A stretch of DNA of 64,000 nucleotides from an uncultured virus (IMG/VR IMGVR_UViG_3300034072_002247). Taxonomy: Duplodnaviria; Heunggongvirae; Uroviricota; Caudoviricetes. Location of the stretch: the IMG/VR virus record IMGVR_UViG_3300034072_002247; one strand, given 5' to 3'. Position 1 is the first letter of the stretch, and every line of letters begins with the position of its first letter. The position numbers and the translations under genes are program-made. The notes under the pieces were generated by a model. That model made no database searches and was not told where the DNA came from. It worked only from the letters and a program-made list of their open reading frames with translations. This document shows, one piece after another, positions 2,678-48,497 of this stretch.

Positions 2678-5035
2678 ATGAGAGTTGTTTATTTTTTATC
2701 AGGAATGCCAGGAACTGGAAAAAGTACATTTATTAACAAGAATGAATTAGAAGCATTAACTATTTCATTAGACACACTTAGAAATATTTATTCAGGTTTA
2801 CAAACTGATTATATAGGAAATATTGTTTTATCCCAAGATAAAAATGATTATGTATATGCTAAATTTTTAGAAGCACTTAAATTTAGATTACAATTAGGTG
2901 GTAAAATTATTATAGATAATTTAAACCCAAAAAATAAAGACATTAAAGAAGTTGTTGAAATCTTAAATCAATATGACTATGATTATAAAGTTGTTCAATT
3001 TAAATTGGAAGATTTAAATTTTTATTTAGAAAGAAATAAGCAAAGAAGTAAATATAAAAGTATTCCAGAAGAAACTATAAAAAATATTTATAAACTATTT
3101 CAAGAAAGAGATTTTCCAAAAGATAAAATAATAACTCCTGAAGAAGCTATTAAAGAAATAAATGCCTCTCCTGAAGATTTACTTGAAGATGTTAGTCATT
3201 ATAAGAAAATTCACTTTATAGGTGATTTACAGGGTTGTTTTTATCCAATCTATAATTACTTAAAAACAAATGGAATAAAAGATGATGAACTTTATGTATT
3301 CTTAGGCGATTATATTGATAGAGGTATTGAAAATGATAAATGTTTAGAATTTGTTTTAAGCAATATACATAAGAAAAATTTTATATTTATAATGGGTAAC
3401 CATGAAAAACATTTATATAATTATAGCAATAATTTATTAAAGCCGCCAACTGAATTTATGTTGCAAACTTTGCCACAGTTGAAGCAGGCTAACTTCTCAA
3501 ATGATAAAATGAAAGAAGTTTATAGAAATCTTCATTTATTCAAATTTTTAAAACATAATGATAAAAAAATATTTGTATCACATGCGGGATTAATTACTAT
3601 TCCAGATAGACCTAATATATTAAATTTTGATGAATATATGAAAGGGCATGGTAGTTATGCATTTAATGTTGATGCTGCATTCCAAGAAAAAAATCAAACT
3701 AATGAATGGTATCAAGTTCACGGACATAGAAATAAATATAAATTAGATTTTAATAGTTATACAAAAAGCTTTGCGTTAGAAGCTGATGTAGAAAATGGTG
3801 GTAACTTACCTATTTTAAGACTTGATTCTAATGGTTTTGATGGGGTTTATATACATAATAAAATATTTAATAGAGAGTTAATAATGAAAAGAGAAAAAGA
3901 ACAAAATATGTTTTTAACAAAAGTTATAAATAGTAGTGTAGGTGAATTTTTAACAAGTAGAATTAATTATGATAAAAATGGATTAGAAATTATTAATGAA
4001 CTAAGAAAAAATGATCTTATTAGAGAAAAAACATTTGAAGATCTTCCTCATATATCTTCATTCAATTTCAAAAAACAAGCATTTTTTGATAAGAGATTTG
4101 ATGATGAATTAGTTATCCATGCAAGAGGATTATTCTTTAATAATTTAACAGGTGAAATTGTTGCTCGTGGTTTTGAAAAATTCTTTAATATTAATGAAAG
4201 AGGAATAGAGTCAGCTAAAATTGAGAATATTGAAAGAACATTCAAAATGCCAGTAACACTTTATGAGAAAGAAAATGGATTTTTAGGTTTAATTGGTTAT
4301 GATTCAAGTAATCATTCATTATTATATGCATCTAAAAGTGATATTGGTGGCGAATTTTCTCAATATCTTGAAAATATTGCTAAAACACAATTTAGTTCTG
4401 GAGAATTAGAATATTTAAAAATATTTGCTAACAAACATAATGTCAACTTTATATTTGAGGTTAATGATCCTATAAATGATCCACATATTATAAAATATGA
4501 AAAACCACATTTAGTTTTATTAAGTGTAGTAAAAAGAGAATTAAGATATTCTGAAATGTCTTATGACCACTTATTAGAATTTGCGAAAGAGTTCAAAGAC
4601 TTACCAGTTAAGAAAAAATTAGTACAAATTAACAATTTTAAATCTTTTATGGGCTTCTATAATTCAGTAAGTAAAGAAAGTGCATTAACTACAAAGAGAC
4701 AATTAGAAGGTTATGTTGTTCAAGATAATGATCTAAATATGGTTAAAATAAAACTACCTTTCTATAACTTCTGGAAATGTATGCGTGGTTTTATAGATCA
4801 GATGAATAATGCTGAAGATAAAAACAAAACATTTGAAATTACAAATACGGTTAACAACCATTTCTTAATTAATGATTCAGATAAAGAATCTGCTATTAAG
4901 TTTTTAGAATATGTTAAATCAATTCCAAGAGAAAACAGAGAAAGAGATATCATATCTTTAAGAGATGATTTCTTAAATAAAAATGATAATCAAAATAAGG
5001 TTGTTTTAGAAAAGAAAAATAAATTAAAAATATAA
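2678..5035 (+). CDS. Pnkp-like RNA repair fusion: P-loop kinase + calcineurin-like phosphoesterase + Rnl1-like RNA ligase
   Basis: GMPGTGKS Walker A; GDLQG, GDYIDRG, GNHE, HGH phosphoesterase motifs; ARGFEKFFN, EKENG, FIFE, EGYV, KIK ligase motifs. Confidence 0.85.
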   Translation: MRVVYFLSGMPGTGKSTFINKNELEALTISLDTLRNIYSGLQTDYIGNIVLSQDKNDYVYAKFLEALKFRLQLGGKIIIDNLNPKNKDIKEVVEILNQYDYDYKVVQFKLEDLNFYLERNKQRSKYKSIPEETIKNIYKLFQERDFPKDKIITPEEAIKEINASPEDLLEDVSHYKKIHFIGDLQGCFYPIYNYLKTNGIKDDELYVFLGDYIDRGIENDKCLEFVLSNIHKKNFIFIMGNHEKHLYNYSNNLLKPPTEFMLQTLPQLKQANFSNDKMKEVYRNLHLFKFLKHNDKKIFVSHAGLITIPDRPNILNFDEYMKGHGSYAFNVDAAFQEKNQTNEWYQVHGHRNKYKLDFNSYTKSFALEADVENGGNLPILRLDSNGFDGVYIHNKIFNRELIMKREKEQNMFLTKVINSSVGEFLTSRINYDKNGLEIINELRKNDLIREKTFEDLPHISSFNFKKQAFFDKRFDDELVIHARGLFFNNLTGEIVARGFEKFFNINERGIESAKIENIERTFKMPVTLYEKENGFLGLIGYDSSNHSLLYASKSDIGGEFSQYLENIAKTQFSSGELEYLKIFANKHNVNFIFEVNDPINDPHIIKYEKPHLVLLSVVKRELRYSEMSYDHLLEFAKEFKDLPVKKKLVQINNFKSFMGFYNSVSKESALTTKRQLEGYVVQDNDLNMVKIKLPFYNFWKCMRGFIDQMNNAEDKNKTFEITNTVNNHFLINDSDKESAIKFLEYVKSIPRENRERDIISLRDDFLNKNDNQNKVVLEKKNKLKI

Positions 5036-10438: not shown

Positions 10439-10662
10439 AATTTCTCCTTATTTTTAAAATCTTTGCTCATTATAATTCATTTAAATATTAAAAGTCAATT
10501 AAATTTTTAAATAAACTATTCCATTACACTTATTATAACATTTTTTATATAAATGCAAGTTTAAAAAAAATTTATTATTTATTTATTTTTTTATTAAAAA
10601 GCTGTTGCAAGCATTAAAATATTTTGATATAATGCAGACATTAAATCGAAGGAGATAAAAAA

Positions 10663-10992
10663 ATGACTAAAGAATTAGAACTAGAACTAGAAACTGAAGT
10701 TTCATTAGAAGTAGAAGAAAAAGGCCCAACTAAAAAAGATTTGGCTGTTATGGAAAAAGTATACGCTGACATTCTTAAGCCTGAGTCTGTTGACTTTTCT
10801 GGTTTAGAAGGTCTTTCAAAAGAAGATAAAATTGGTGTTGTTAGAATCTCTAAGTACATTGATGAATGTAGAGAAGCTAATAGAATCAACTCAAAAGAGT
10901 ATGTAAGAGTTGAAGAAGATGAAGAAGTTAAAGAAATCAGCGAAATGGATTTAGAAGATTTCAGTAATGTTAGAGAAGGTATGTTTGACTAA
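10663..10992 (+). CDS. small acidic hypothetical protein
   Basis: TTGCAA..TATAAT promoter, AAGGAG SD, own terminator; Glu/Asp-rich. Confidence 0.75.
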   Translation: MTKELELELETEVSLEVEEKGPTKKDLAVMEKVYADILKPESVDFSGLEGLSKEDKIGVVRISKYIDECREANRINSKEYVRVEEDEEVKEISEMDLEDFSNVREGMFD

Positions 10993-17055: not shown

Positions 17056-18183
17056 TTATATTTTATATTCTTCTACTAATTTAAAATATAATTCTTTAAT
17101 ATCTTCTTCAGTTGATTCAGTATTATCAAACTTTTGAATTCTACCAAAATGAGATTCAGATATTGCATTCTTAATAGAACTAATTTTTGAAGAATTAGAT
17201 TTCATATGTTTTATTCTATTGTCAGCATCATTTGTTTCTATATTTCTAAATGATTTTAATCTTAAATTTCTAACAGCAGAATCAGCATCTACAACAATTA
17301 CATGATTATTACAAATATTTAATAGATTTGCTTCAACTAACAATGCAGCATTAATTAAAATTATTCCTTTTTTATCTCTAAGTTCCTGTCTTAACAATAC
17401 CATTACAGGATCTTTAAAAATGTTATTCAAAAATTCTACATGCTCTTTAGAGTTTTCACTACCAAAAGCAATCTCAGCAATCTTTTTCTTATCAAGAGTA
17501 CCAAAATGTGAATTAATTTTTTCTCTAATAGATGCGTATGCTGGCTTTTCTTCTGTATATACTCTTTGTGCTAGTTTATCAAGTTCTATATTATGTACTA
17601 ATGGCATACTATCATTTTTTAGATTTTCTTCTTTGCTTATTCTAACTAGTTGTTCAGCAACATATGACTTACCAGAACCCATAATTCCAGTTATTCCATA
17701 AATTAATTGACTAGAAATTTTTCTTTCAAGTAATTTTTTAACTGGTAGAGGTACATATTCATGAATAAGTCCATTTTCTAATTGAATAGCTTTAACACTA
17801 CTTGAGCTTACATGAGAAAATTGAGACTTTGAGAATAAGAAAAATGTATCAATATTCATTTGAGAACTATTTATTTGATCTAAACTTTTTTCGAATTCAA
17901 AATCTGAAGCATTTCTTATGCCTCTAATGATAACATTTGCATTTTGCTCAAAAGCAAAATCAACAAGAAGTCCATCAAAAAACATTACTTCAACATTATG
18001 AAGAAATGCTAATGATTCTTTTGCAACTTTATATTTTTCTTCAGTTGTTAGTAAGTATTTTTTACTAGAATTAATACCTAATGCAACAATTAATTTATCA
18101 AATGATTGTGCAGCCCTTTTAATAATGTCGATATGACCGTAAGTGATTGGGTCACCAGATAATGCGTAAACTGCTATGCTCAT
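17056..18183 (-). CDS. coaD: fused phosphopantetheine adenylyltransferase (CoaD) and dephospho-CoA kinase (CoaE)
   Basis: DPITYGHIDII, IIRGIR...DFEFE, VSSSSVK; then YGITGIMGSGKS Walker A and ALLVE. Confidence 0.85.
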   Translation of the reverse strand: MSIAVYALSGDPITYGHIDIIKRAAQSFDKLIVALGINSSKKYLLTTEEKYKVAKESLAFLHNVEVMFFDGLLVDFAFEQNANVIIRGIRNASDFEFEKSLDQINSSQMNIDTFFLFSKSQFSHVSSSSVKAIQLENGLIHEYVPLPVKKLLERKISSQLIYGITGIMGSGKSYVAEQLVRISKEENLKNDSMPLVHNIELDKLAQRVYTEEKPAYASIREKINSHFGTLDKKKIAEIAFGSENSKEHVEFLNNIFKDPVMVLLRQELRDKKGIILINAALLVEANLLNICNNHVIVVDADSAVRNLRLKSFRNIETNDADNRIKHMKSNSSKISSIKNAISESHFGRIQKFDNTESTEEDIKELYFKLVEEYKI

Positions 18184-24491: not shown

Positions 24492-25251
24492 TTATTTCAT
24501 TTATATTTTTAAATTTATAAATGTTTGATATTTCAATTACAATAGTGTTTTCATCAGAAAATGGAGTTTTATAAATAGCTATTTTTTCTAAATCAATGTC
24601 CAATTCAATATCTATATCTTCTTTTTTATAATAGCCTTCTATATTTCCATCTGGAACAACCGTGAAATATACATCTTCCAAATATATTTGGTTTAAAAAC
24701 TTAACTAAATTTTCTAAAACTTTAAAATTAACTTCATATGTTGAAGCATAAATGTCATAATCATTTTCAGATAATGCAACTTCTATTAAACTATCTATTG
24801 TTCTTTTTGAACAATATTTTAAATCATATAATAAACTTAATTTATGAAGTTCTTTATCATTATAAAATTCAAATTTATTATTAAATCTTATTTTAGATAA
24901 AACATAATCAGATATTACTATATCATAAGAAATAAAATCATTATAATAAGTAGTCATATTTTTTTCAAAAATTAATATATTAGTTATATTTATATCTTTC
25001 CATTCTAATATTAATTCACCTTCATATCCAAAAAATATATACAAATTTCTTTCAATATTTTTATTTTGCTTTATGAAAATTAAAGCTTTTTCTAATGATT
25101 TATAATTCATAGGATCTGCATTTTTACCATCCCAATTTTTTTCTATTTCTGATAATTCCACTAATCTATTATATTCTCTTTCATTTAAGTATTCATTGTA
25201 ATTACTAATTAAATCTAAAATTTCTTTATTCATTTTTTCACCTATATACAT
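24466..25251 (-). CDS. hypothetical protein
   Basis: 261-aa ORF with NWDGKNADP motif. Confidence 0.65.
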   Translation of the reverse strand: MYIGEKMNKEILDLISNYNEYLNEREYNRLVELSEIEKNWDGKNADPMNYKSLEKALIFIKQNKNIERNLYIFFGYEGELILEWKDINITNILIFEKNMTTYYNDFISYDIVISDYVLSKIRFNNKFEFYNDKELHKLSLLYDLKYCSKRTIDSLIEVALSENDYDIYASTYEVNFKVLENLVKFLNQIYLEDVYFTVVPDGNIEGYYKKEDIDIELDIDLEKIAIYKTPFSDENTIVIEISNIYKFKNINEIIEEINYEK

Positions 25252-25709
25252 TGAAATTTTTTGGTTATATGTTTTATATCTTCTTTTTTACAAGGACCGA
25301 TTCCTAAAGCAGTAATGATAGGTTTTCCATCAAAGTGTGGTGGTAATATATGACCTTGATCAACAATTAAAGCACAAGGAATGCCTTCAGATTTAGCCTG
25401 AATATATGCTTTTATTAAATGATCTTCATTTTTTGCTTTTAATGTAACTTTAGAACCACCAGATTGAGAATTTCTATAATTAGCAACATTTTCTGGATGT
25501 GTGTTTAAAGCATTCATTAATGAATCAGTGTATGCATGACCAGCCTGAGCAGATAGTTTTCCAGAAGGCATTTCTAGATCTGAACGAATGATTGCATATA
25601 TGTAATAGTGAGAGTCTTTAGAGTAATCTAAAGGTATTTTTTGAGTGTGAAGACGTATTAATTCTTCTTTTGATATTTTGCTTAAATCTATATTATCAAT
25701 TTACAACAT
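25242..25709 (-). CDS. pth2: peptidyl-tRNA hydrolase Pth2 with in-frame TAA at codon 3
   Basis: YIYAIIRSDLEMPSGKLSAQAGHA, KVTL, IVD, TALGIGP; the conserved first strand lies upstream of the track's Met (25571); the only upstream SD-ATG is 25709, followed by TTG-TAA. Confidence 0.85.
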
Positions 25710-30129: not shown

Positions 30130-30777
30130 ATGAAAAAATTAACAATTACAACTTTAATGTCAGCCATCATTTTGGCAGGTTGCACAACAAATCCACATAC
30201 AGGTGAATCACAAGTATCTAAAGGTGCAATGTATGGTGGTATTGGGGCTGTAGGTGGTGCCGTTGTAGGAGCTTTAGCTGGTGGTAAAAAAGGGGCTATT
30301 ATTGGTGCAGGTGTTGGCGCTGTTGCTGGTGGTGGTTATGGTGTCTATGTTGATGTTCAAGAAAAAAAATTAAGAGAGCAATTAAAAAATACAGGTGTTG
30401 AAGTTCAACGTAATGGAAATAGCATTCTTTTAACTATGCCGGGCAATATTACTTTTGATACTGGCAGTGCAAATATGTCTTCTTCTTTTTATTCTACTTT
30501 AAACTCCATTGCTGCATCTTTAAAAGAGTATAAAGATACTCAGATAACAGTAACTGGTCACACTGATAATTCTGGAAGTTTTGAAAAAAATCAAATTTTA
30601 TCAGAACAAAGAGCAAAAACAGTAGCAGATTATTTATCAGCACAAGGTGTTGAGCAACATAGAATTCAAGCTTATGGATTAGGATCTAGACAACCAATTG
30701 CAGATAATGATACTGATTCTGGTAGACAAAAAAATCGTAGAGTGGAAATAAAAATTAATGAAATTCAACAACAATAA
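30130..30777 (+). CDS. OmpA-family lipoprotein (YiaD-like)
   Basis: LAGC lipobox, glycine zipper, GHTD..G....N..LS..RA, NRRVEI. Confidence 0.9.
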   Translation: MKKLTITTLMSAIILAGCTTNPHTGESQVSKGAMYGGIGAVGGAVVGALAGGKKGAIIGAGVGAVAGGGYGVYVDVQEKKLREQLKNTGVEVQRNGNSILLTMPGNITFDTGSANMSSSFYSTLNSIAASLKEYKDTQITVTGHTDNSGSFEKNQILSEQRAKTVADYLSAQGVEQHRIQAYGLGSRQPIADNDTDSGRQKNRRVEIKINEIQQQ

Positions 30778-30851
30778 GCCTTTTAGGCTTATTGCTTATT
30801 GACTTAAATATTTTTAAATATAAAATTTTATTTATAACTTGGAGTTTTTAT

Positions 30852-31364
30852 ATGAAAAAAATTGCTACTTTAACTTTTATTGGAATTACTAGCATAATTG
30901 CTGGTTGTTCAACTGTTCATGTAGAAAAAGAACCTACTTTAAATAGTATTAAATGGTCTTTAGAAGATAAAAAAGTTTATTTAAGAACTATGTATGTTCA
31001 AGCAGACTTTAAAGAAAATGGTGATAGAAGAACTTTTAATGATTATGATTTTAGAAAAGAAACTGCACCTTGTACAGTAATTAAACAATATAGTCCAAGA
31101 ACATATGTTTATACAATTGAAAAAGATAAACAAACTTTAAACTTTGAATGTCGTCCTTATTTTGGTTATGAAAAACCAGACTTAAGAAGACTTTATTTAA
31201 TAGGTTCTATCAAAGATTGTGAAGATAGAACATGGGATTATAAAGCACCAGTTGTAAACTTTGACAAAAATGGATTTGTTGATGTTAAATCTATGTGCAA
31301 ACTACCAAAGAGAACACATTATAACGATTCTATAGAAAAACGTTATGTTGAATGGTTTAAATAA
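30852..31364 (+). CDS. lipoprotein
   Basis: GGAG SD; MKKIATL...IIAGC lipobox. Confidence 0.7.
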   Translation: MKKIATLTFIGITSIIAGCSTVHVEKEPTLNSIKWSLEDKKVYLRTMYVQADFKENGDRRTFNDYDFRKETAPCTVIKQYSPRTYVYTIEKDKQTLNFECRPYFGYEKPDLRRLYLIGSIKDCEDRTWDYKAPVVNFDKNGFVDVKSMCKLPKRTHYNDSIEKRYVEWFK

Positions 31365-31385
31365 AAGCTCCTTCGGGAGTTTTTT
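31365..31385 (+). terminator. intrinsic terminator
   Basis: GCTCC-TTCG-GGAGT followed by T-tract. Confidence 0.85.
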
Positions 31386-31386
31386 A

Positions 31387-31415
31387 TTTACATTTAAAAA
31401 AAAATAGTTTATAAT
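31387..31415 (+). promoter_or_regulatory. sigma70 promoter of the argS leader
   Basis: TTTACA-17-TATAAT. Confidence 0.75.
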
Positions 31416-31437
31416 CGCATTTTTAAAAGAGGAAAAA

Positions 31438-31509
31438 TCATGAAGCTCAGACGATTCTAAAATATTTATAAAATTTAAACATATAAACTATTTTAGGAGA
31501 GCATCATGA
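31438..31509 (+). promoter_or_regulatory. translational attenuator hairpin sequestering the argS SD and AUG
   Basis: TCATGA-a-GCTC-[AGACGA bulge]-TTCTAAAATA-TTTATA pairs with TATAAA-c-TATTTTAGGA-GAGC-a-TCATGA. Confidence 0.8.
31440..31460 (+). CDS. argS leader peptide MKLRRF
   Basis: AGAGGA SD; ATG AAG CTC AGA CGA TTC TAA; tandem Arg codons in front of ArgRS. Confidence 0.8.
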   Translation: MKLRRF

Positions 31510-33134
31510 AAAACAACATTATTAAAGATATTAATACTTATCTTTTATCTAAAAATATTAATCAAAATTTTAAACTTATTTATTCAAGTTATGAAGACTT
31601 TCATTATCAAACATCTTTATTATTTAGTTTAAAAAATAATAAAAATTTTGATACTACAGATTTTTTAAATTACTTAAAAAATACAAAAAACTATGATAAA
31701 GTTGAAATTACTGGAAATGGATTTCTTTCATTTAAACTATCAAATTTTTCTTATGAAAATGAAAGCATTAAAAAACAAGAAAAAATAATTGTAGACTATT
31801 GTGGCATAAATATAGCAAAAAAAATGCACATAGGCCATATTCGGTCTATGTTTACTGGTGATTTCTTAGTTCGGTTACACCAATATTTAGGAAATGAAGT
31901 TTTTATTTTTAATCATATTGGTGATTGTGGCAATCAATTTGGTTATCTAATAAATTATATTATTTCCAATGATATTAAAGAATTTAATAGTCAAGAACTA
32001 ACTGAACTTTATAAAAAAGCTTTTGTTAAATATAGTGAAGATGAAAATTTCAAGGAAAATTCTGATTTAATTGCCACTTCTTTACAAAAAAAATCCAATC
32101 TTAAAGTTTTGGAAATTTGGAATAAATGTGTAGAGACTAGTTTAAAAGATCTAGAAAAATTTATTAATCTTTTCTCCTTAAAAATGAATTTAAAAAATGT
32201 TCAAGGTGAAAGTTTTTACTATGACATGTGCAATGATATTGTTGAAGATTTAATATTTAAAAAAATTGTTAAGGTTGATATTGATAATTCAGTTTATTTT
32301 GAATACAAAAATTCTAAAATTGTTTTAAAGAAATCAAATGGTAATTTTTTATATTCAACTTATGATTTAGCAGCAATAAAATGGCGGAAAGACAATATTA
32401 ATCCAGATAAAATATTCTATGTTGTTGATAAACGGCAATCTAAACATTTTGACTTAATTTTTGAAATATCAAAACAAGCTGGGTACTCAAAAAACGTTGA
32501 ATTAATACATGTTCCTTTTGGAACTATAATTGATAAATCAGGAAAGCCACTTAAAACGAAATCAGGAGAGTCTTTATATCTTGAAGATATGTTAAATGAT
32601 GGATATGATGAAATATCTAAATTTGAGTATATACAAAAAATTCCAGAACAGATAAAAAATAAAATGATAAATACCGCATTAATATCAGCATTGAAATTTT
32701 ATGATTTAAAATTTTCTAAGGATAGTGATTATTTTTTTGATTGGAATAATATATTTGATATAAAAGGTGGAACTTCTGGATATATTCAGCAAACTTATGT
32801 TCGGATTGAATCATTAATCTTAAAATCAAACATTGAGTTAGATAATATTGAATTCAATTCTTTAAATTTAAATGACGAAGAAAATTATATTTTATTTAAT
32901 TCTTACAAATTAAAAGAAATAATTGATAATTTTGAAGGATTTCAGAGCAATTTAATAATTAATCAACTTATATATTTATGTGCCATTTTTAATAAATATT
33001 ATGAAAACAACAATATTAATTCAGCAAGTGATAAAATTAATAAATTAAAATTAATTATGAATATTAAAAATAATATAAAATTATCTGGTGATATATTAGG
33101 TCTGACTTTTTATAAACCTTTTAAAACACAATAA
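31506..33134 (+). CDS. argS: arginine--tRNA ligase
   Basis: VDY...NIAKKMHIGHIRS (HIGH), NHIGD.G.QFG, GESFY, Y.TYDLAA, YVVD.RQ..HF, FG......KPLKTKSG. Confidence 0.95.
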   Translation: MKNNIIKDINTYLLSKNINQNFKLIYSSYEDFHYQTSLLFSLKNNKNFDTTDFLNYLKNTKNYDKVEITGNGFLSFKLSNFSYENESIKKQEKIIVDYCGINIAKKMHIGHIRSMFTGDFLVRLHQYLGNEVFIFNHIGDCGNQFGYLINYIISNDIKEFNSQELTELYKKAFVKYSEDENFKENSDLIATSLQKKSNLKVLEIWNKCVETSLKDLEKFINLFSLKMNLKNVQGESFYYDMCNDIVEDLIFKKIVKVDIDNSVYFEYKNSKIVLKKSNGNFLYSTYDLAAIKWRKDNINPDKIFYVVDKRQSKHFDLIFEISKQAGYSKNVELIHVPFGTIIDKSGKPLKTKSGESLYLEDMLNDGYDEISKFEYIQKIPEQIKNKMINTALISALKFYDLKFSKDSDYFFDWNNIFDIKGGTSGYIQQTYVRIESLILKSNIELDNIEFNSLNLNDEENYILFNSYKLKEIIDNFEGFQSNLIINQLIYLCAIFNKYYENNNINSASDKINKLKLIMNIKNNIKLSGDILGLTFYKPFKTQ

Positions 33135-33195
33135 AATTCTATTTTGACTTATTAATATGTAAATGTATTATAATATAAAAACAACACTAAATTTT

Positions 33196-33852
33196 ATGAA
33201 AAATAAATACAGTGGTTTAAGTCTTATAGAGTCAATGTTATCTTTAACAATATTGACTATTATTTCATTATCTTTGATTCAATGGTATTCAACTATTAAA
33301 GAAAAAGAATTAAATAAAAAATTTTCTGACGAAATAAGTCTTATTTTGTATGCCACTGATAGGAGACTTTTTATTGATCAATTTAAAGATAACGATTTTT
33401 CTTACCAAATTTATAATGGTGAAAAAATAAATTTAAATAAAACATTCATTTCTTTTGATAATAATTGTGGTGAAAGTGATGGGTGGAAACCTAAAGGATA
33501 TTCTGATATTTCTTTGATTTCTTGTGGAATGTGGAAAAATAAGATCCCTTATAATCTAAATATTGAGGTAAAAATAAAAAAGAAAAAAGATTATATAACT
33601 AAAGTTTATTATGATTACTCTTTTAAAGAAGAACAACAATATGAAAAATTTAAAGGATTGCTAATAGAACTTAATAAAAACATTAAAAATAATATGGTTC
33701 CATTACATGCTGGTAGCATTAGTTCTTATTTTATAGATGATGAAAACAATAAGATAAACTTAATTGAATGTTCAAAATTAAAAGTTAATTGTAAATTAAG
33801 AACTGAATTTAAATCTTCTCCAGCATTATTATTAGAAGATGAGCTTTTGTAA
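33196..33852 (+). CDS. type IV prepilin-like protein
   Basis: MKNKYSG|LSLIESMLSLTIL class III signal (G at -1, E at +5). Confidence 0.7.
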   Translation: MKNKYSGLSLIESMLSLTILTIISLSLIQWYSTIKEKELNKKFSDEISLILYATDRRLFIDQFKDNDFSYQIYNGEKINLNKTFISFDNNCGESDGWKPKGYSDISLISCGMWKNKIPYNLNIEVKIKKKKDYITKVYYDYSFKEEQQYEKFKGLLIELNKNIKNNMVPLHAGSISSYFIDDENNKINLIECSKLKVNCKLRTEFKSSPALLLEDELL

Positions 33853-33881
33853 TTGACATTTAAAATTAATTAGTTTAAAAT
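33853..33881 (+). promoter_or_regulatory. sigma70 promoter of the tRNA-array leader
   Basis: TTGACA-17-TAAAAT. Confidence 0.8.
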
Positions 33882-33908
33882 ATTCATATATTAAAAAGGA
33901 AAACAGTT

Positions 33909-33956
33909 ATGAAAGACGTAAAACCATTTATAATAGCGAGAGCAAGAATATCTTAA
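33909..33956 (+). CDS. tRNA-array leader peptide MKDVKPFIIARARIS
   Basis: AAGGA SD; codon run ATA ATA GCG AGA GCA AGA ATA before TCT TAA. Confidence 0.8.
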   Translation: MKDVKPFIIARARIS

Positions 33957-34041
33957 TGAGCTAACTCATTGAGAGGGGTTAGCGTGTCTAATCCCTAACT
34001 GCTAGTACAAAGCCTTTGGGGAAATCTCAAAGGCTTTTTTT
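33954..34041 (+). promoter_or_regulatory. transcription attenuator with alternative hairpins
   Basis: 1:2 = 33954-60/33965-71; 3:4 = 33974-82/33988-96; terminator 34009-21/34025-37 + U-tract; alternatives 33960-67/33976-83 and antiterminator 33992-98/34016-22. Confidence 0.75.
34009..34041 (+). terminator. attenuator terminator
   Basis: AAAGCCTTTGGGG-AAA-TCTCAAAGGCTTT followed by TTTT. Confidence 0.9.
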
Positions 34042-34133
34042 ATGCACTAAATGTGCAGGGTATTGTTCAACCCTAAACAATGTAAGTTATTGATTTTAAA
34101 AGAAAAAAAGTTAAAAAATATTTAAAAAAAGTA

Positions 34134-34162
34134 TTGACAAGTGAAAAAAGTTTAGGTAGAAT
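34134..34162 (+). promoter_or_regulatory. second, array-proximal sigma70 promoter with upstream IHF-consensus site
   Basis: TTGACA-17-TAGAAT; reverse-strand AATCAA-TAAC-TTA (WATCAANNNNTTR) at 34083-34095. Confidence 0.7.
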
Positions 34163-34221
34163 ATGTAGTATGAAGAGTTGAGAAAGAAATTAAAAAAATC
34201 AACTTTGAATATTTAATAAAT

Positions 34222-34300
34222 GGGGGCACATGTACCAATGGGCCGGCGAGGAAGGTTTGCACCTTTCCTGTGAAGAGTTCGATTCTCTTTGTCTCCACCA
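34222..34300 (+). tRNA. tRNA-Ala(TGC), atypical D-arm
   Basis: GGGGGCA/TGTCTCC with G3:U70, loop TT-TGC-AC, TTCGATT T-loop, ACCA. Confidence 0.8.
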
Positions 34301-34303
34301 AAT

Positions 34304-34449
34304 TTGTGCTATAGTTATATGTTGGTAAAATAGTTTTTATAGGTTAAAGTTTACAGTTCAATTCTGTATCACTTTATTATAAAGGATAGTTTAATTAGGT
34401 AAAACATTAACCATAGAAAAAGTATGTAGTTCGATTCTACATAGCACAA
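34304..34449 (+). ncRNA. anticodon-less double tRNA-like RNA (two tRNA bodies fused through the anticodon stems)
   Basis: acceptor TTGTGCTA/TAGCACAA; two D-arms with GG loops; two T-arms (TTCAATT, TTCGATT); internal closed acceptor hairpin; 13-bp connector 34334-47/34407-19; no CCA. Confidence 0.75.
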
Positions 34450-34455
34450 TAAAAC

Positions 34456-34531
34456 GGGGTGATAGCTCAGTTGGGAGAGCGTCTGAATGGCATTCAGAAG
34501 GTCGTGGGTTCGAACCCCATTCATTCCACCA
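34456..34531 (+). tRNA. tRNA-Ala(GGC)
   Basis: canonical cloverleaf, G3:U70, TCTGA-AT-GGC-AT-TCAGA, ACCA. Confidence 0.95.
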
Positions 34532-34543
34532 GATTTAAGATAT

Positions 34544-34618
34544 GGGCTTATAGTTTAATTGGGAAAATATCTGCCTTGCACGCAGAAGTTCAGAGTTCGA
34601 TTCTCTGTAGGTCCACCA
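34544..34618 (+). tRNA. tRNA-Ala(TGC)
   Basis: G3:U70, TCTGC-CT-TGC-AC-GCAGA, ACCA. Confidence 0.95.
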
Positions 34619-34623
34619 AATAT

Positions 34624-34700
34624 GTTCGCGTAGCTCAGTTGGATAGAGCAGCCGCCTTCTAAGCGGCTGGTCGTGGGTTCGAATCCCTCCGTGAACGCCA
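34624..34700 (+). tRNA. tRNA-Arg(TCT)
   Basis: GCCGC-CT-TCT-AA-GCGGC, GCCA end. Confidence 0.95.
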
Positions 34701-34702
34701 AG

Positions 34703-34787
34703 TTAAGTTAAAAATATAGGGTCAGAACCTATCTGCTGAATTTTATTAAATTTGGTGGTAATGTAACGGTAAACATATTTAACTTAA
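34703..34787 (+). ncRNA. circularly permuted tRNA-like RNA (T-arm, closed acceptor stem, D-arm order; YrlA-like module)
   Basis: closing stem TTAAGTTAAA/TTTAACTTAA; ATAGG-GTCAGAA-CCTAT; CTGCTGAATTT-TATT-AAATTTGGTGG; TA; ATGT-AACGGTAA-ACAT. Confidence 0.7.
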
Positions 34788-34792
34788 ATTAT

Positions 34793-34869
34793 GGGTCTGT
34801 AGTTCAGTTGGGAGAACGCTTCGCTTGCACCGAAGATGTCATGGGTTCGAATCCCATCAGTATCCACCA
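34793..34869 (+). tRNA. tRNA-Ala(TGC) with a bulged base in the acceptor stem
   Basis: GGGTCTG/CAG-T-ATCC, CTTCG-CT-TGC-AC-CGAAG, ACCA. Confidence 0.9.
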
Positions 34870-34874
34870 GTTAT

Positions 34875-34950
34875 GGGGTTTTAGTTTAATATTGATAAAA
34901 CGCCGGGGTTAAACTCGGAAATGCAAGGTAAACACTTGTAGACTCCACCA
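34875..34950 (+). tRNA. Ala-identity tRNA-like RNA with 6-nt anticodon loop
   Basis: GGGGTTT/AGACTCC with G3:U70 and ACCA; CCGGG-GTTAAA-CTCGG; non-canonical T-loop GTAAACA. Confidence 0.7.
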
Positions 34951-34960
34951 ATTTATATAT

Positions 34961-35035
34961 GGGCTGATAGTTTAATTGGGAAAATCCCTGCCTTGCACGC
35001 AGGAGTTCAGGGTTCGATTCCCTGTTGGTCCACCA
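34961..35035 (+). tRNA. tRNA-Ala(TGC)
   Basis: G3:U70, CCTGC-CT-TGC-AC-GCAGG, ACCA. Confidence 0.95.
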
Positions 35036-35047
35036 GATTTTTTATAT

Positions 35048-35123
35048 GTCCTCTTAGCTCAACTGGAAGAGCAATGACCTTCTAAGTCATAGGTTGTAGG
35101 TTCGAATCCTACAGGGGATGCCA
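35048..35123 (+). tRNA. tRNA-Arg(TCT)
   Basis: ATGAC-CT-TCT-AA-GTCAT, GCCA end. Confidence 0.95.
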
Positions 35124-35128
35124 AATAT

Positions 35129-35203
35129 GGGGATTTTAGTTTAACCGGGAAAACGGCTTGCAAGAGTGAGCAGTCTGTAGTTCAAGTCTACATATCTCCA
35201 CCA
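35129..35203 (+). tRNA. Ala-identity tRNA-like RNA with collapsed anticodon loop
   Basis: GGGGAT/ATCTCC with G3:U70 and ACCA; GCTTGC-AAGA-GTGAGC in place of the anticodon arm; intact D and T arms. Confidence 0.7.
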
Positions 35204-35209
35204 TATAAA

Positions 35210-35284
35210 GGTTCTCTAGCATAATGGTTAATGCACTCCGCTCATAACGGAATGATTCAGGTTCGATTCCTGGGAGAACCACCA
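35210..35284 (+). tRNA. tRNA with CAT anticodon (probably Ile2, possibly Met)
   Basis: GGTTCTC/GAGAACC, TCCG-CT-CAT-AA-CGGA, ACCA; no initiator features. Confidence 0.85.
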
Positions 35285-35290
35285 AATTAC

Positions 35291-35367
35291 GGGACTTTAG
35301 CTCAGTTGGTTAGAGCATCCGACTCATAATCGGCAGGTCGTAGGTTCAAGTCCTACAAGTCCCACCA
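35291..35367 (+). tRNA. tRNA-Ile2(CAT), reads ATA after lysidine modification
   Basis: CCGA-CT-CAT-AA-TCGG anticodon arm as in enterobacterial tRNA-Ile2, GGGACTT/AAGTCCC, ACCA. Confidence 0.9.
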
Positions 35368-35385
35368 TATTTTTTGGAGATATTT

Positions 35386-35919
35386 ATGAAATTTCCTTAT
35401 ATTCCACCACTTTCAATAGATGAATTCTTAAAGTTAGATTCTGATAATATAACTATTCTTGAAAATAAAGAATTAATTTTAAAAATAGAAAAAAGATCTT
35501 TATATATTTTTGAAAGAATATCTCAAATTTTAAATTTAAATTTTAGTTGGGTAACTTTTGATACTATTGATTTAGAAAGACATAAAAATGAAAATAATGG
35601 AACTTTTTCTTATAATAAATATAAAGATTATATTTCTTTCTATAGTGATCTTGAAGAATTAGAGCACTTAAACAAAATTATTGATGTTTATTACAATAAA
35701 TTTCCTACTAAATTTATATATGAAAATTTTGAGAATGAAGTTTTAGAAACTATATCTAAAATTAAAAAATCAATTGAAGAAAAAAAAGAAAGAAACAAAA
35801 AAAAGAGAATAAAAGAAAAACAAAATAAAATTGAAAGAGATAAAATTAGACCAGAAGTTATTGCTTCTATAAAATCCAAATTAACAGAACTTGAACTTTC
35901 TTTTATTGATTTTAAATAA
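35386..35919 (+). CDS. hypothetical protein inside the tRNA array
   Basis: GGAG SD before ATG at 35386; C-terminal coiled coil. Confidence 0.7.
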   Translation: MKFPYIPPLSIDEFLKLDSDNITILENKELILKIEKRSLYIFERISQILNLNFSWVTFDTIDLERHKNENNGTFSYNKYKDYISFYSDLEELEHLNKIIDVYYNKFPTKFIYENFENEVLETISKIKKSIEEKKERNKKKRIKEKQNKIERDKIRPEVIASIKSKLTELELSFIDFK

Positions 35920-35928
35920 ATACGTTAT

Positions 35929-36004
35929 GTCCATATAGCTCAACAGGAAAGAGCAACTGCCTCCTAAGCGGAAGATATAGGTTCGAGTCCTATTATGGAT
36001 GCCA
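35929..36004 (+). tRNA. tRNA-Arg(CCT)
   Basis: CTGC-CT-CCT-AA-GCGG, GTCCATA/TATGGAT, GCCA end. Confidence 0.9.
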
Positions 36005-37444: not shown

Positions 37445-38425
37445 ATGAAATTATACAAGCTAAATTTAGTTAAATTAAAAGTCATACAAAATAGTATAGA
37501 TAAAGAAGAACAATCTATTCAAAATTTAAAATTTCAAATTAAAAAATATTATCATATTGATGTATTAGAAAAATTAGGCATTAATAAAATTTATATGTCT
37601 ACTGAAGATTTGGATTTCAACTTTTATTTAACTGAAGACCAAATTAAAAAAATAAATTTATTTGCAAAATTAAATAGTGGATTTAATTTATCATTTGATG
37701 ATTTACCATTTAAAGAAATTAATAACTTCAAAGAATTTGAATATTCAAATAAAAATGATTTACCAAAAATAACTACTTTATATAAAGAATTAGATCAAAT
37801 TAAAGATTTATACTTTGATTCTGAAAGAAATCAACGTAAAACTATAAATAAAGAACGTGTAGAAAAATTTGGTAAACTAAATAATTCAATTGAAGGAAAA
37901 AAAATAATTTCAATAGATTTTGAATTTAATCCTAATAACATTGTAGATAAATATGATTTAAGTTTTATATCAGAAGTAGGTATTACAACTAATTTTAATG
38001 GTAATATAGAATCAAAACATTTTATAATTGATGAAAATAAAAAATCAAAATCAAAAGAATTAGGTTTTTTATATGGAGAAACAGAAAGTATTAATACAAA
38101 TGATATTAAAAAAATTCTTAATAACGAACTTAAAAATGCAGATATATTAATTTTACATAGTTTCCATGCTGAATTAAACTTTCTTATTGATAACTCAATT
38201 GAACATTCACATTTAGATATTTTAGATGTTCAAATATTATATAAAAATTATATTGATAATGGAAATGAAGATCTTAAAAAGCTATCAAAAATACTTCAGG
38301 GATTAAATATTGATTACGGTTTCTTACATAATGCTGGTAATGATGCTTATTACACTCACGAAGCATTTGTAAAAATATTAGATAAAATTAATTTCAAGAA
38401 AAAAAACACATTCAAAATCAAATAA
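37445..38425 (+). CDS. DEDDh exonuclease-domain protein
   Basis: SIDFEF, SEVG, HNAGNDAYYT. Confidence 0.8.
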   Translation: MKLYKLNLVKLKVIQNSIDKEEQSIQNLKFQIKKYYHIDVLEKLGINKIYMSTEDLDFNFYLTEDQIKKINLFAKLNSGFNLSFDDLPFKEINNFKEFEYSNKNDLPKITTLYKELDQIKDLYFDSERNQRKTINKERVEKFGKLNNSIEGKKIISIDFEFNPNNIVDKYDLSFISEVGITTNFNGNIESKHFIIDENKKSKSKELGFLYGETESINTNDIKKILNNELKNADILILHSFHAELNFLIDNSIEHSHLDILDVQILYKNYIDNGNEDLKKLSKILQGLNIDYGFLHNAGNDAYYTHEAFVKILDKINFKKKNTFKIK

Positions 38426-41504: not shown

Positions 41505-41999
41505 TTATTTTTTAAATTCAAATTTTATAAACAATCTTTCAATTGGTACTTTAATTTCTCCATTTTCATCAAAATTGCTATTTTTTTCATTTGATAAGTA
41601 GTTTATATCTATATCTTTTTTATTAATATCATTAGAAGTATTAATATCTTTTAAATCTATTACAGATTTTTCTACTGCAATTTTAAAGTTTAATTCAGCT
41701 TCTAATCTAGCTCTTATAATAGGATTTTCTATTTCAGTTGCTTTTAATTCTTTTCCTGAAAAATACTCTTTTGCTTCTCTCATAAATACGAGAAATCTTT
41801 GGTCTTTTACATTATCTATAAACTTTTCTGTTCTATTACTTGCTGTTCTTGTGTCTACTGGTATTGAAGGTTCTTCTTCAAAAGGACTTCTTACACTTAA
41901 ATCTAGTATAATATTATTGTCTTTTTCTTTGTAATGATAATTAACTCCTTTATGGAAAGGAGTAGCAAAATCTTTACTAGTTTGCTCAACTATATTCAT
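41505..41999 (-). CDS. hypothetical protein
   Basis: 164-aa ORF with AAGGTG SD. Confidence 0.65.
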   Translation of the reverse strand: MNIVEQTSKDFATPFHKGVNYHYKEKDNNIILDLSVRSPFEEEPSIPVDTRTASNRTEKFIDNVKDQRFLVFMREAKEYFSGKELKATEIENPIIRARLEAELNFKIAVEKSVIDLKDINTSNDINKKDIDINYLSNEKNSNFDENGEIKVPIERLFIKFEFKK

Positions 42000-42982: not shown

Positions 42983-43909
42983 ATGGAAAGGTTAGTGCAG
43001 TCATATTCTATAAGAGACATTAGAACAAAAATTTTCAATAAACTTTCTTTAAAAAATAGAAATGATATTGCTAATTATATTTCCATTAAAAACTTATACA
43101 GTGAACTTCAGATAGATGAATATTTAATAGAACCTGAGTTAAATGATTGTTTTATCAATGTCATTGATTTTGTAAAGTTAATTACTTTTATTAATTTAAA
43201 ACATAATTCAAATATTAGATTAACAGATTTTAAAAGTCATGAAAATAATCACAATTCTTTTACTAAAATAAAAAATATAGATGAAGCTTTATATCTTGAT
43301 GTGACTTTTAACTATATATTTTCAAGACCTAACTTAAACTCAACAATTAATAACATATTTAAAGAAGATATAAAAATAGGTAAAACTGTAGTTTCTTTCG
43401 ATTTTTCTTTTAATCAGTGTTATGATATAGTAGATTTGGGTATATCATATTACAATGGCAAAATAAGAAAAGACTATCATTACTTAGTAAAAGAGAACTT
43501 ACCAAATAAATTTTCAGATAACAGTAATTATTTATCATTTCATTTTGGAAAAACTGAAATAAAATCCTATGATAAATTAATAAATATACTTTCAGCTTTT
43601 ATTCAACAAGCTGACATTATACTTTTACATGACACTTCCAATGATTTAAAAGCTTTACATAAAGTTAATCTAGATACTTTATTAGAAAACAAAAAAGTAA
43701 TAGACACTTCTCTTATTTTTAAAATTGAAGACAATCATTTAATAGTAAAAGACACCTCTAAAAGAACGAGTTTAAAAGATCTATTAAAGTTTAGTAATAT
43801 TCCTTATAGCAAACTTCATAATAGTGGAAATGATGCTACTTATACTTTAAAATTATTTATTAAAAACTTTAATAAAATAAAAAAATACTCAAAAGTCTTT
43901 TCTAATTGA
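42983..43909 (+). CDS. DEDDh exonuclease-like paralog, motif I Glu replaced
   Basis: SFDFSF, DLG, HNSGNDATYT; paralog of 37445-38425. Confidence 0.75.
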   Translation: MERLVQSYSIRDIRTKIFNKLSLKNRNDIANYISIKNLYSELQIDEYLIEPELNDCFINVIDFVKLITFINLKHNSNIRLTDFKSHENNHNSFTKIKNIDEALYLDVTFNYIFSRPNLNSTINNIFKEDIKIGKTVVSFDFSFNQCYDIVDLGISYYNGKIRKDYHYLVKENLPNKFSDNSNYLSFHFGKTEIKSYDKLINILSAFIQQADIILLHDTSNDLKALHKVNLDTLLENKKVIDTSLIFKIEDNHLIVKDTSKRTSLKDLLKFSNIPYSKLHNSGNDATYTLKLFIKNFNKIKKYSKVFSN

Positions 43910-47891: not shown

Positions 47892-48497
47892 TTAACTTAA
47901 AAGTTCAAACATTTTTAGATCATCTCCACATTTATTTTTTAGTCTATCTATCCAGGCTTGATTTTTAACTTTGCAGCGAATAATTTTATTTTTTAAAAAT
48001 GCTTTACCAATTACACCTTCAAATGTCATTCCAGAAAAATTACCTTCTTTTATTTCTTTCATAACAATTTGATTTAATCTAAATATGCCTAAAAATTCTG
48101 CCATATCTATATTATCAAAAGCCTTAATGTAATCTTTGGGTGGTAAATATCCTATTTTACCTATATGTGCATCTATTAATTTTACTTTAAAATTATCATT
48201 TTCTTCATGAAATCCTGCAAATGATTTATCTCCATAAAATTCAAAAAATAATGTACCATCCTGCCATTTATTTTTTTTAAAAATATCATATACTGCTTTT
48301 TCATTTTGCATTATTAAGTCTTTTGATAAATTTAAAATACCTGAATCATCAGACATCAACTTTTTTCTGGTTCCAAATTTATCAAATCCTTTTTTTAATG
48401 AGAATTCAACTCTTATATTGGAGCCATCTAATTTATCAAATAGATAATAATCTAAATCTTTTATAACTTCTTTATTAATACTTGGATACTGTTGCAT
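47892..48497 (-). CDS. small RNA-ligase-family nucleotidyltransferase (Rnl2-like)
   Basis: YPSI, DKLDGSN (motif I), FGTR, FFEFYG, FEGVI, KVKN. Confidence 0.75.
   Translation of the reverse strand: MQQYPSINKEVIKDLDYYLFDKLDGSNIRVEFSLKKGFDKFGTRKKLMSDDSGILNLSKDLIMQNEKAVYDIFKKNKWQDGTLFFEFYGDKSFAGFHEENDNFKVKLIDAHIGKIGYLPPKDYIKAFDNIDMAEFLGIFRLNQIVMKEIKEGNFSGMTFEGVIGKAFLKNKIIRCKVKNQAWIDRLKNKCGDDLKMFELLS

Follow-up and report, generated by a model that had tools for sequence, protein, structure and literature searches.

A candidate leader-peptide attenuator of arginyl-tRNA synthetase synthesis in DNA of a phage-like replicon

Introduction

Translational attenuation of the erm/cat type (ermC, catA86, cmlA) relies on a leader open reading frame (ORF) with its own ribosome-binding site (RBS), on a hairpin which hides the Shine–Dalgarno (SD) sequence and AUG of the downstream gene, and on a stalled ribosome which acts as the anti-sequestor. 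A similar arrangement is found upstream of argS, the gene for arginyl-tRNA synthetase (ArgRS), in the DNA considered here, a stretch of 64,000 nucleotides (nt) from an uncultured virus of the Caudoviricetes (IMG/VR record IMGVR_UViG_3300034072_002247), referred to below as the window. The leader has its own RBS, the 5' arm of the hairpin lies in the leader, the 3' arm contains the SD and AUG, and no terminator follows. In the erm and cat systems stalling depends on an antibiotic and the nascent peptide, whereas the stall signal proposed here is a shortage of charged tRNA-Arg at two cognate codons. The two-hairpin relay of those systems is also absent, and a single hairpin with a six-codon leader would regulate a synthetase gene.

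Classically, synthetase genes are controlled by T-boxes, by protein autoregulation (thrS) and by transcription attenuation (pheST). In T-box and thrS systems, as proposed for argS, synthetase expression tracks the charging of the cognate tRNA or the enzyme level, in some cases by SD sequestration, although these systems involve the direct binding of tRNA or protein whilst the sensor proposed here is the translating ribosome. Leader peptides with cognate codons are found at pheM-pheST and trpL, where they act by terminator/antiterminator transcription attenuation. The argS leader shares with them its cognate-amino-acid codons, two adjacent sensor codons in the case of trpL, and a proposed feedback by stalling. 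It differs in that no terminator follows its hairpin, the predicted output being exposure of an SD sequence.

PMC1262725 describes a candidate attenuator upstream of Streptomyces trpS2, which, like that of pheST, would act on transcription, a translational ileS T-box and the LEU element of actinobacterial leuA, a predicted upstream ORF (uORF) whose regulatory Leu codons pair with the leuA SD box. The direct pairing of uORF codons with a downstream SD is common to the LEU element and the argS leader. As presented there, the LEU element combines a run of Leu codons with a pseudoknot ahead of a biosynthetic gene in Actinobacteria, whereas at argS two Arg codons lie beside the SD-pairing segments of a simple hairpin and the gene encodes a synthetase. 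PMC13009471 describes rbfL of Staphylococcus aureus, in which a uORF with the rare Arg codons AGA and AGG was shown experimentally to sense arginine limitation by ribosome pausing. Both rbfL and argS would thus have a small Arg-codon uORF acting on translation initiation at the next gene. According to the same text the paused ribosome at rbfL occludes the adjacent RBS and so represses, whereas the SD of argS is some 40 nt away and activation would be expected; with Arg codons at 31449-54 and an SD at 31494-31501, at least 40 nt downstream, the geometry is not that of rbfL-type occlusion. In mechanism the nearest known systems are thus erm/cat attenuation, the LEU element and rbfL. Among open-access papers and bioRxiv no published case was found of argS being controlled by a leader peptide or uORF, or of a cognate-codon leader acting on an argS RBS. 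In one preprint (bioRxiv 10.1101/2021.05.27.446073) 'argS' and 'leader peptide' both occur, in unrelated contexts.

The argS leader and its hairpin

The features of the argS leader region, all on the + strand, are as follows.

31363..31384, + strand: intrinsic-terminator-like hairpin with a T-run (9 pairs, 3 of them GC)
31387..31415, + strand: sigma-70-like promoter TTTACA-17-TATAAT (11/12 consensus matches)
31428..31433, + strand: leader SD AGAGGA, 7 nt 5' of the leader AUG and free of the hairpin
31440..31460, + strand: leader mini-ORF, MKLRRF and stop, read from the sequence as ATG AAG CTC AGA CGA TTC TAA
31449..31454, + strand: Arg-Arg codons AGA CGA, the proposed sensor, in a 6-nt bulge facing the centre of the argS SD
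31438..31470, + strand: 5' arm of the fold, with the AUG, Leu, post-Arg and stop codons of the leader and 10 nt further
31471..31481, + strand: apical loop of the fold, 11 nt, its sequence without an Arg anticodon triplet
31482..31509, + strand: 3' arm of the fold, with the argS SD (TAGGAGAG, 31494-31501) and start codon (31506-08)
31506..33134, + strand: argS, the regulated gene, encoding an arginyl-tRNA synthetase of 542 amino acids (PF00750, E 2.6e-66; DALR_1, E 1.4e-11)

Folding with ViennaRNA, in which 31436-31511 was taken as the hairpin stretch and 111 nt as the wider context, gives a single hairpin of 26 base pairs (bp), 31438-43/31504-09, 31445-48/31499-502 and 31455-70/31482-98. Its minimum free energy is -20.0 kcal/mol (z -6.52) and none of 200 dinucleotide shuffles is equally stable. 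In the 111-nt context the same hairpin has -20.7 kcal/mol (z -5.31), and the fold of this leader in the three-locus comparison described below has z -6.0, with 0/300 shuffles equally stable. A preliminary description, made from the letters of the sequence, had claimed that 31438-31470 pairs with 31482-31509 over about 26 bp, that the AGGAG and ATG of argS are buried in this pairing, and that AGACGA is the only large bulge. All of this holds: the pairs number exactly 26, every base of the AGGAG core (31495-99) and of the argS ATG (31506-08) is paired with leader codons, and AGACGA (31449-54) is the sole bulge of more than 1 nt. Of the leader codons, ATG and AAG form pairs with the start region of argS, CTC with GAG in the argS SD, and TTC and TAA with AGGA of the SD and the two U's 5' of it. 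The observation of a leader and a sequestering hairpin at argS is confirmed.

Among the 70 ORF starts of the window the RBS of argS is the least accessible, with a mean unpaired probability of 0.063 against a median of 0.41. The duplex between leader and RBS (-13.0 kcal/mol) is matched by 6 of 2000 shuffled leaders and by one of 405 natural windows within 1.5 kb. The next most sequestered RBSs belong to the ORFs at 41505-41999 (-) and 30792-31364 (+), with unpaired probabilities of 0.16-0.20. The TTG start of the latter overlaps an opposite-strand terminator-like hairpin at 30770-96, and its start call is doubtful.

The leader ORF with its own SD and promoter, likewise put forward in the preliminary description, is present at 31440-60, accompanied by AGAGGA and the 11/12 TTTACA-17-TATAAT site. 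This promoter-like site has the joint best score within 30500-34500, shared with two other sites, and transcription is predicted to start near 31422. An in-frame TAA at 31425-27 bars any upstream extension of the leader ORF. By its sequence, the terminator-like hairpin at 31363-31384 is the likely close of the upstream gene and would set the argS unit apart. An internal promoter within the hairpin, in the style of T4 gene e, was also considered; no + strand promoter-like site occurs at 31416-31505 in a scan blind to phage-specific promoters. The argS product is a full-length class I arginyl-tRNA synthetase, and the assigned start codon is backed by near-invariant M1, K2, D8, Y12 and L13 across 21 relatives. 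The terminator scan found no terminator-like site between 31385 and the argS coding region, and downstream of the 3' arm the sequence is A-rich rather than a U-run. Without a terminator after the hairpin, control would be exerted on translation, the level at which it had been proposed to act.

Recurrence of the leader among ArgRS relatives

Upstream DNA was collected for 10 relatives sharing 35-47% identity with the window ArgRS; JGI and NCBI metagenomes supplied nine of them and IMG/VR the tenth. When IMG/VR was scanned with a single protein no ArgRS relative came back, and a profile scan returned one, the leaderless L081. Homologous mini-ORFs precede two of the 10 genes, those of loci L082 and L087. 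At L082 (47% identity, on a contig of 1.86 Mb) the leader is ATG AAC ACA CAA CTA TTG AGA CGA CTT TAA, encoding MNTQLLRRL, with GGAG 8 nt 5' of the ATG. The whole module recurs at this locus in the form of a terminator (2263-82), an 11/12 promoter (2351-80), SD, leader, hairpin and argS. At L087 (38% identity) the leader is ATG ATG TTA AAA CTC AGG CGA ATT GAT TAA, encoding MMLKLRRID. The three leaders share a Leu-Arg-Arg core, its Arg codons being AGR CGA, and end one or two codons after it in UAA. Within this core the Leu codon varies between CTC and TTG and the first Arg codon between AGA and AGG; such synonymous changes with the peptide core kept are as expected for selection on the reading frame.

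The background frequency of such ORFs was counted on both strands of the window and seven AT-rich loci. Mini-ORFs of at most 12 codons with an adjacent Arg pair number 13 in 186,648 nt, and four of the 13 are these leaders. There are thus about nine unrelated Arg-Arg mini-ORFs per 186.6 kb, an estimated ~0.005 per 100-nt upstream region, and the presence of two more in the 100 nt before argS at the seven AT-rich loci has an estimated p of ~5e-4. In a broader survey, which took in 158 of 161 argS loci, Arg-Arg mini-ORFs were seen at 24, the L-R-R form occurring among the surveyed loci only at L082 and L087. A recurrent 'MRRII' mini-ORF was set aside as lying inside the reading frame of the upstream gene. 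A search of IMG/VR for the leader-plus-SD pattern matched at least 120 loci; of the matches listed three passed the mini-ORF filter, and these form one unrelated GC-rich family with no ArgRS gene after the leader.

In a maximum-likelihood tree of 28 ArgRS rows, which leaves the N-terminal fragments of L086 and L089 outside, the leader-bearing genes (window, L082, L087) belong to a single 19-row clade (support 95/98). L081, L083 and L084, which have no leader, form part of a separate six-row clade (support 90/93), and by eye the N-termini of L086 and L089 resemble this leaderless group. L085 lies within the leader clade on a long branch and is leaderless. The record bearing L081 (180,807 bp) is classed as a provirus by IMG/VR; three ankyrin-repeat genes flank its ArgRS gene, the product of which is identical to a protein on a 2,230,803-bp contig. 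An NCLDV capsid gene was looked for and not seen, in a search which gave no match anywhere.

Conservation of the pairing

The three leaders were folded singly and compared in a per-codon pairing table. The arm sequences differ between the loci whilst complementarity to each locus's own argS SD is kept. At all three loci the beginning of the leader is paired with the start region of argS or its first codons, and the remaining codons behave as follows.

Post-Arg codon(s) and stop: TTC TAA in the window, CTT TAA in L082 and ATT GAT TAA in L087, all paired with the 5' half of the SD and its flank
Leu codon: paired with GAG of the SD in the window and L087, and in L082, jointly with AGA and C, with the 7 nt just 3' of the SD
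Arg codons, unpaired bases: 6/6 in the window, 2/6 in L082 and 5/6 in L087

The preliminary description had the two Arg codons bulged out and proposed covariation among homologous leaders as a check. The bulge is complete in the window, nearly so in L087, and mostly absent in L082. In the per-sequence folds the arms differ and the pairing is kept; a joint analysis with MAFFT and RNAalifold misaligned the three leaders and predicted 0 pairs. Parts of the window recur in 20 rows of sequencing runs, and contigs from four runs, being short and not usefully spanning 31458-31517, yielded no variants of the hairpin. For L082 the fold has z -3.6, with none of 300 shuffles equally stable, and its leader-to-RBS duplex (-13.4 kcal/mol) is matched by 4 of 2000 shuffles and none of 402 natural windows. 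The structure is significant independently in two of the three loci, the window and L082, and marginal in L087.

In each of the three leaders the second Arg codon is CGA, which accounts for 6 of the 464 Arg codons in window ORFs, for 2 of 22 in L087 and for 7 of 36 in L082. AGA is the commonest Arg codon of the window (395/464), and CTC contributes 5 of its 1619 Leu codons; CTC and CGA are thus found 5 and 6 times among 17,869 window codons.

Ribosome modelling

The ribosome was modelled by blocking positions -12 to +15 relative to the P site, its A site holding either the first Arg codon (Arg1) or the second (Arg2), and the cost of opening the argS start was taken as the ensemble free energy needed to open positions -15 to +12 of argS. 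At each locus the predicted cost is as follows.

Window: 17.2 kcal/mol free, 2.2 with the ribosome at Arg1 and 2.1 at Arg2
L082: 19.7 kcal/mol free, 5.7 at Arg1 and 8.5 at Arg2
L087: 9.2 kcal/mol free, 4.2 at Arg1 and 4.1 at Arg2

In the window the mean unpaired probability of the SD rises with the modelled ribosome from 0.01 to 0.53. With about 40 nt between the Arg codons (31449-54) and the argS SD (31494-31501) downstream of them, a stalled ribosome would not cover the SD but expose it.

Proposed mechanism

Taken together with the folding models, the sequences point, with moderate confidence, to a leader-peptide translational attenuator which would report the supply of charged tRNA-Arg and set the synthesis of ArgRS. 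Leader translation, ribosome stalling, the dependence on arginine and the direction of control are elements which we infer. In the off state the argS mRNA, starting at about 31422, would form the 26-bp hairpin in which the leader ORF is paired with the argS SD and AUG. A ribosome would enter at the unpaired leader SD, read M-K-L and then require Arg-tRNA at AGA and CGA. With Arg-tRNA in ample supply it would get to the UAA, three codons further on, and depart, allowing the hairpin to form again; re-pairing of the leader AUG with the argS AUG in the basal helix may lock the off state once the leader ribosome has gone. Where charged tRNA-Arg is scarce, whether through low ArgRS, arginine limitation or damage to tRNA-Arg, the ribosome would linger on the Arg codons. 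Its footprint would then span the entire 5' arm, leaving the argS SD and AUG single-stranded some 40 nt downstream and open to translation. Thus ArgRS would probably be made only when a ribosome stalls for want of charged tRNA-Arg, and the outcome would be a homeostatic negative feedback on the enzyme. The suggestion of an Arg-tRNA attenuator in the preliminary description is therefore supported, albeit not proven, by the mini-ORFs of L082 and L087 and by the modelled ribosome, which frees the argS start in all three loci.

Several observations weigh against the attenuator. Only three examples of the leader are available in all, and seven of the 10 relatives (L081, L083, L084, L085, L086, L089, L091) have no such mini-ORF. 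A 21-codon ORF with Arg codons at L088 shows z -0.46 and no predicted switch, and was not counted. L087 has no SD 5' of its leader and no promoter was found there; its fold has z -1.8, with 15 of 300 shuffles equally stable, and 134 of 2000 shuffles match its duplex, as do 29 of 311 natural windows. In L082 the Arg codons are unbulged, with 4/6 bases paired. The first sensor codon of the window is its commonest Arg codon. CGA is not rare in L082, so an argument from the rarity of CGA fits only two of the three loci. Any ribosome crossing a six-codon leader opens the hairpin, and only its dwell time can be regulated; moreover, a stalled ribosome carrying a peptide of three or four residues may drop its peptidyl-tRNA instead of waiting. 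Finally, the mean unpaired probability of the SD, a cruder measure than the opening cost, falls with the modelled ribosome in L082 (0.33 to 0.09) and L087 (0.61 to 0.15), because weak AU-rich alternative pairings arise.

Alternative explanations

The effect of the leader could be had without any sensing of arginine. By constitutive uORF-dependent unfolding or a programmed pause, argS would follow leader translation or translation capacity, and the Leu-Arg-Arg codons would be intrinsically slow codons or sequence required only by the fold. Any leader ribosome covers the 5' arm, the pairing of CTC with the SD GAG means that structure explains at least that rare codon, and the great rarity of CTC and CGA in the window would lead one to expect a pause whatever the arginine level. 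A generic pause could nevertheless take any rare codon, whereas the gene here encodes ArgRS, both conserved unpaired codons are Arg codons in three lineages, and the first of them is AGA, which is anything but rare in the window. This account is rather unlikely. It is also unlikely that a trans-acting factor works on the hairpin, be it ArgRS at the AGRCGA bulge by the logic of the thrS operator, RNase III by that of the lambda N leader, or melting by temperature. In its favour, the CG then A of AGRCGA presumably resembles positions 35-37 of the tRNA-Arg(ACG) anticodon loop; the 26-bp stem is AU-rich, with UUCU paired with AGGA, and such a factor could coexist with leader translation. The conserved AGRCGA, with its CGA, is on the other hand a one-sided bulge and not a 7-nt hairpin loop, and the apical loop of the window is without an Arg anticodon. 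No T-box or other Rfam family was matched by the window at gathering thresholds or by L081-L084 and L087 at E up to 0.1. A site that is not translated would have no use for the in-frame AUG, for the SD placed 7-8 nt before it in the window and L082, or for the stop which comes 1-2 codons after the Arg pair at all three loci. An in-frame AUG before a stop has an estimated chance of ~0.15 per locus at this base composition, and the synonymous CTC/TTG change of the Leu codon indicates selection on the reading frame.

Weak hairpins are plentiful in AT-rich DNA, and with n = 3 and a structure in L087 that is not significant alone, a chance hairpin with a chance mini-ORF, both without function, has to be considered. 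The z of -6.5 and the sequestration rank of 1/70 make this very unlikely, as does the recurrence of an AGR-CGA mini-ORF (p ~5e-4) before ArgRS genes only 38-47% identical. The Lys-x-Arg arrest motif of the macrolide type is matched by K-L-R in two of the three leaders, but it gives no rationale with ArgRS. The leader might, lastly, be a minigene like CreT, a strongly initiated six-codon ORF which ties up a tRNA-Arg species and does not regulate argS. According to PMC8501985, CreT is a free-standing RNA toxin, paired with CreA and CRISPR-Cas, and its parts list is the same as that found here: a strong SD, an AUG, a stable stem-loop and an ORF of 4-6 codons in which two Arg codons follow each other. 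Unlike that of CreT as described there, the stem in the window is made of the SD and AUG of argS in cis, and this is kept in relatives. AGA is not rare in the window DNA, and no CRISPR or CreA-like partner was noticed alongside, no systematic search for one having been made. A minigene of this kind is highly improbable.

Genes around argS

The candidate attenuator stands upstream of a cluster of 10 tRNA genes (34224-36004, ARAGORN), about 1-3 kb 3' of argS, in which three tRNA-Arg genes are found.

34624-34700 and 35048-35123, + strand: tRNA-Arg(UCU) (ARAGORN, Rfam tRNA)
35929-36004, + strand: tRNA-Arg(CCU) (ARAGORN, Rfam tRNA)

The argS leader and these downstream tRNA-Arg genes may be functionally tied. 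A tRNA-Arg(ACG) was not found in the window by ARAGORN or Rfam tRNA. The make-up of the cluster is unusual, with four tRNA-Ala(UGC), one tRNA-Ala(GGC), two tRNA-Arg(UCU), two tRNA-Met and one tRNA-Arg(CCU). A weak eleventh tRNA at 34875-34947 (Rfam, 36 bits) has no ARAGORN call. Two 11/12 sigma-70-like promoters (33853-81, 34134-62) lie upstream of the cluster.

Elsewhere in the window (10605-10665), the ORF at 10663 is immediately preceded by the mini-ORF ATG CAG ACA TTA AAT CGA AGG AGA TAA, with three codons for Arg of which two are rare. This mini-ORF was considered as a second leader (10632, CGA AGG AGA) and rejected, since its ATG overlaps the -10 box of a TTGCAA-17-TATAAT site and it is probably untranscribed. 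The mini-ORF is probably off the mRNA, and its Arg codons are best read as an in-frame SD.

Character of the replicon

The GC content of the window is 18-36% per 2-kb window, mostly 20-26%. GGAG, GAGG or AGGA occurs at -20 to -4 in 31 of 70 ORFs, against a background of 4.4%, and there are five terminator-like sites where 0.7 would be expected; judged from these signals, the DNA is of a kind expressed by bacterial means, with SD-led initiation. The gene content is phage-like and includes PTH2, a ClpA-like ATPase, Sir2, MazG-type and other pyrophosphatases, RNase H and a DprA-like protein. A radical-SAM protein is 49% identical to proteins of phiKZ-like jumbo phages, and an ORF of 1182 amino acids has weak 'virion structural protein' profile matches. 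Genes for RNA repair and translation rescue lie at 2678-5035 (+), 25242-25571 (-) and 47892-48497 (-). The first encodes a fusion of 785 amino acids of kinase, metallophosphatase and T4-Rnl1-type RNA ligase, 32-33% identical over its full length to SPbeta-/Twort-type phage proteins; an archaeal/eukaryotic-type peptidyl-tRNA hydrolase, PTH2, and a second, weak RNA-ligase-like ORF are also among them.

Other cargo is less usual. An ORF at 17056-18183 (-), 375 amino acids, fuses a cytidylyltransferase-like (PPAT-type) domain to a dephospho-CoA kinase (CoaE), the final two steps of coenzyme A synthesis and an unusual cargo for a phage-like element. Two paralogous ORFs 4.5 kb apart, 37445-38425 (326 amino acids) and 42983-43909 (308 amino acids), have a C-terminal DEDDh_C domain (DNA polymerase III epsilon-like). 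Between them are a NUDIX gene, a NIF/CTD-phosphatase-like gene and a gene for a 642-amino-acid protein with an ART-PolyVal ADP-ribosyltransferase domain.

The window ArgRS and ClpA-like protein are listed on a contig of 1,042,066 bp, and related ArgRS genes are carried by contigs of 1.3-2.3 Mb. About 119 related ArgRS proteins are listed, those nearest to the window ArgRS being 48-97% identical. The ClpA of named bacteria is only 38-48% identical and their ArgRS at most 33%, and no ArgRS relative above 33% identity was found in GTDB species genomes. A blastn comparison with phages gave no close DNA relative, and tblastn reached at most 31% identity in phages and 33% in plasmids. Across its 64 kb the window is devoid of ribosomal and other core genes of cells, some 60% of its ORFs have no Pfam match, and there are strong jumbo-phage PHROG matches. 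By its gene content the source may be a giant phage-like replicon of a bacterium, phage and cell both being possible. It may belong either to phages or elements far larger than those described, or to an AT-rich cell lineage absent from GTDB species genomes.

Implications

What appears to be new at this locus is a ribosome-stalling translational attenuator with two Arg codons in a six-codon leader, placed on the ArgRS gene of a giant phage-like replicon, a reading which sequence and modelling support and do not prove. A wider picture can be drawn only tentatively, and as a whole it is doubtful. In this picture a giant, AT-rich phage-like replicon would carry its own minimal sensor of tRNA-Arg charging, six codons long with a Leu-Arg-Arg core, and would induce its own ArgRS when starvation responses, tRNA-targeting defence nucleases or the like drain or attack the Arg-tRNA pool of the host. 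The sensor would be part of a self-contained translation-rescue island with three tRNA-Arg genes, the kinase-phosphatase-RNA-ligase and the peptidyl-tRNA hydrolase, and would be ancient, having been kept across ArgRS proteins 38-47% identical and contigs of up to 1-2 Mb.

If the attenuator is real, it would be among the smallest amino-acid sensors known, consisting of six codons and one hairpin, and would be easily tested and reusable as a genetic part. Large phage-like replicons would then not only carry translation genes but control them through feedback from tRNA charging. It would also offer a tangible way into the question of why synthetases and tRNAs are encoded by such elements at all.

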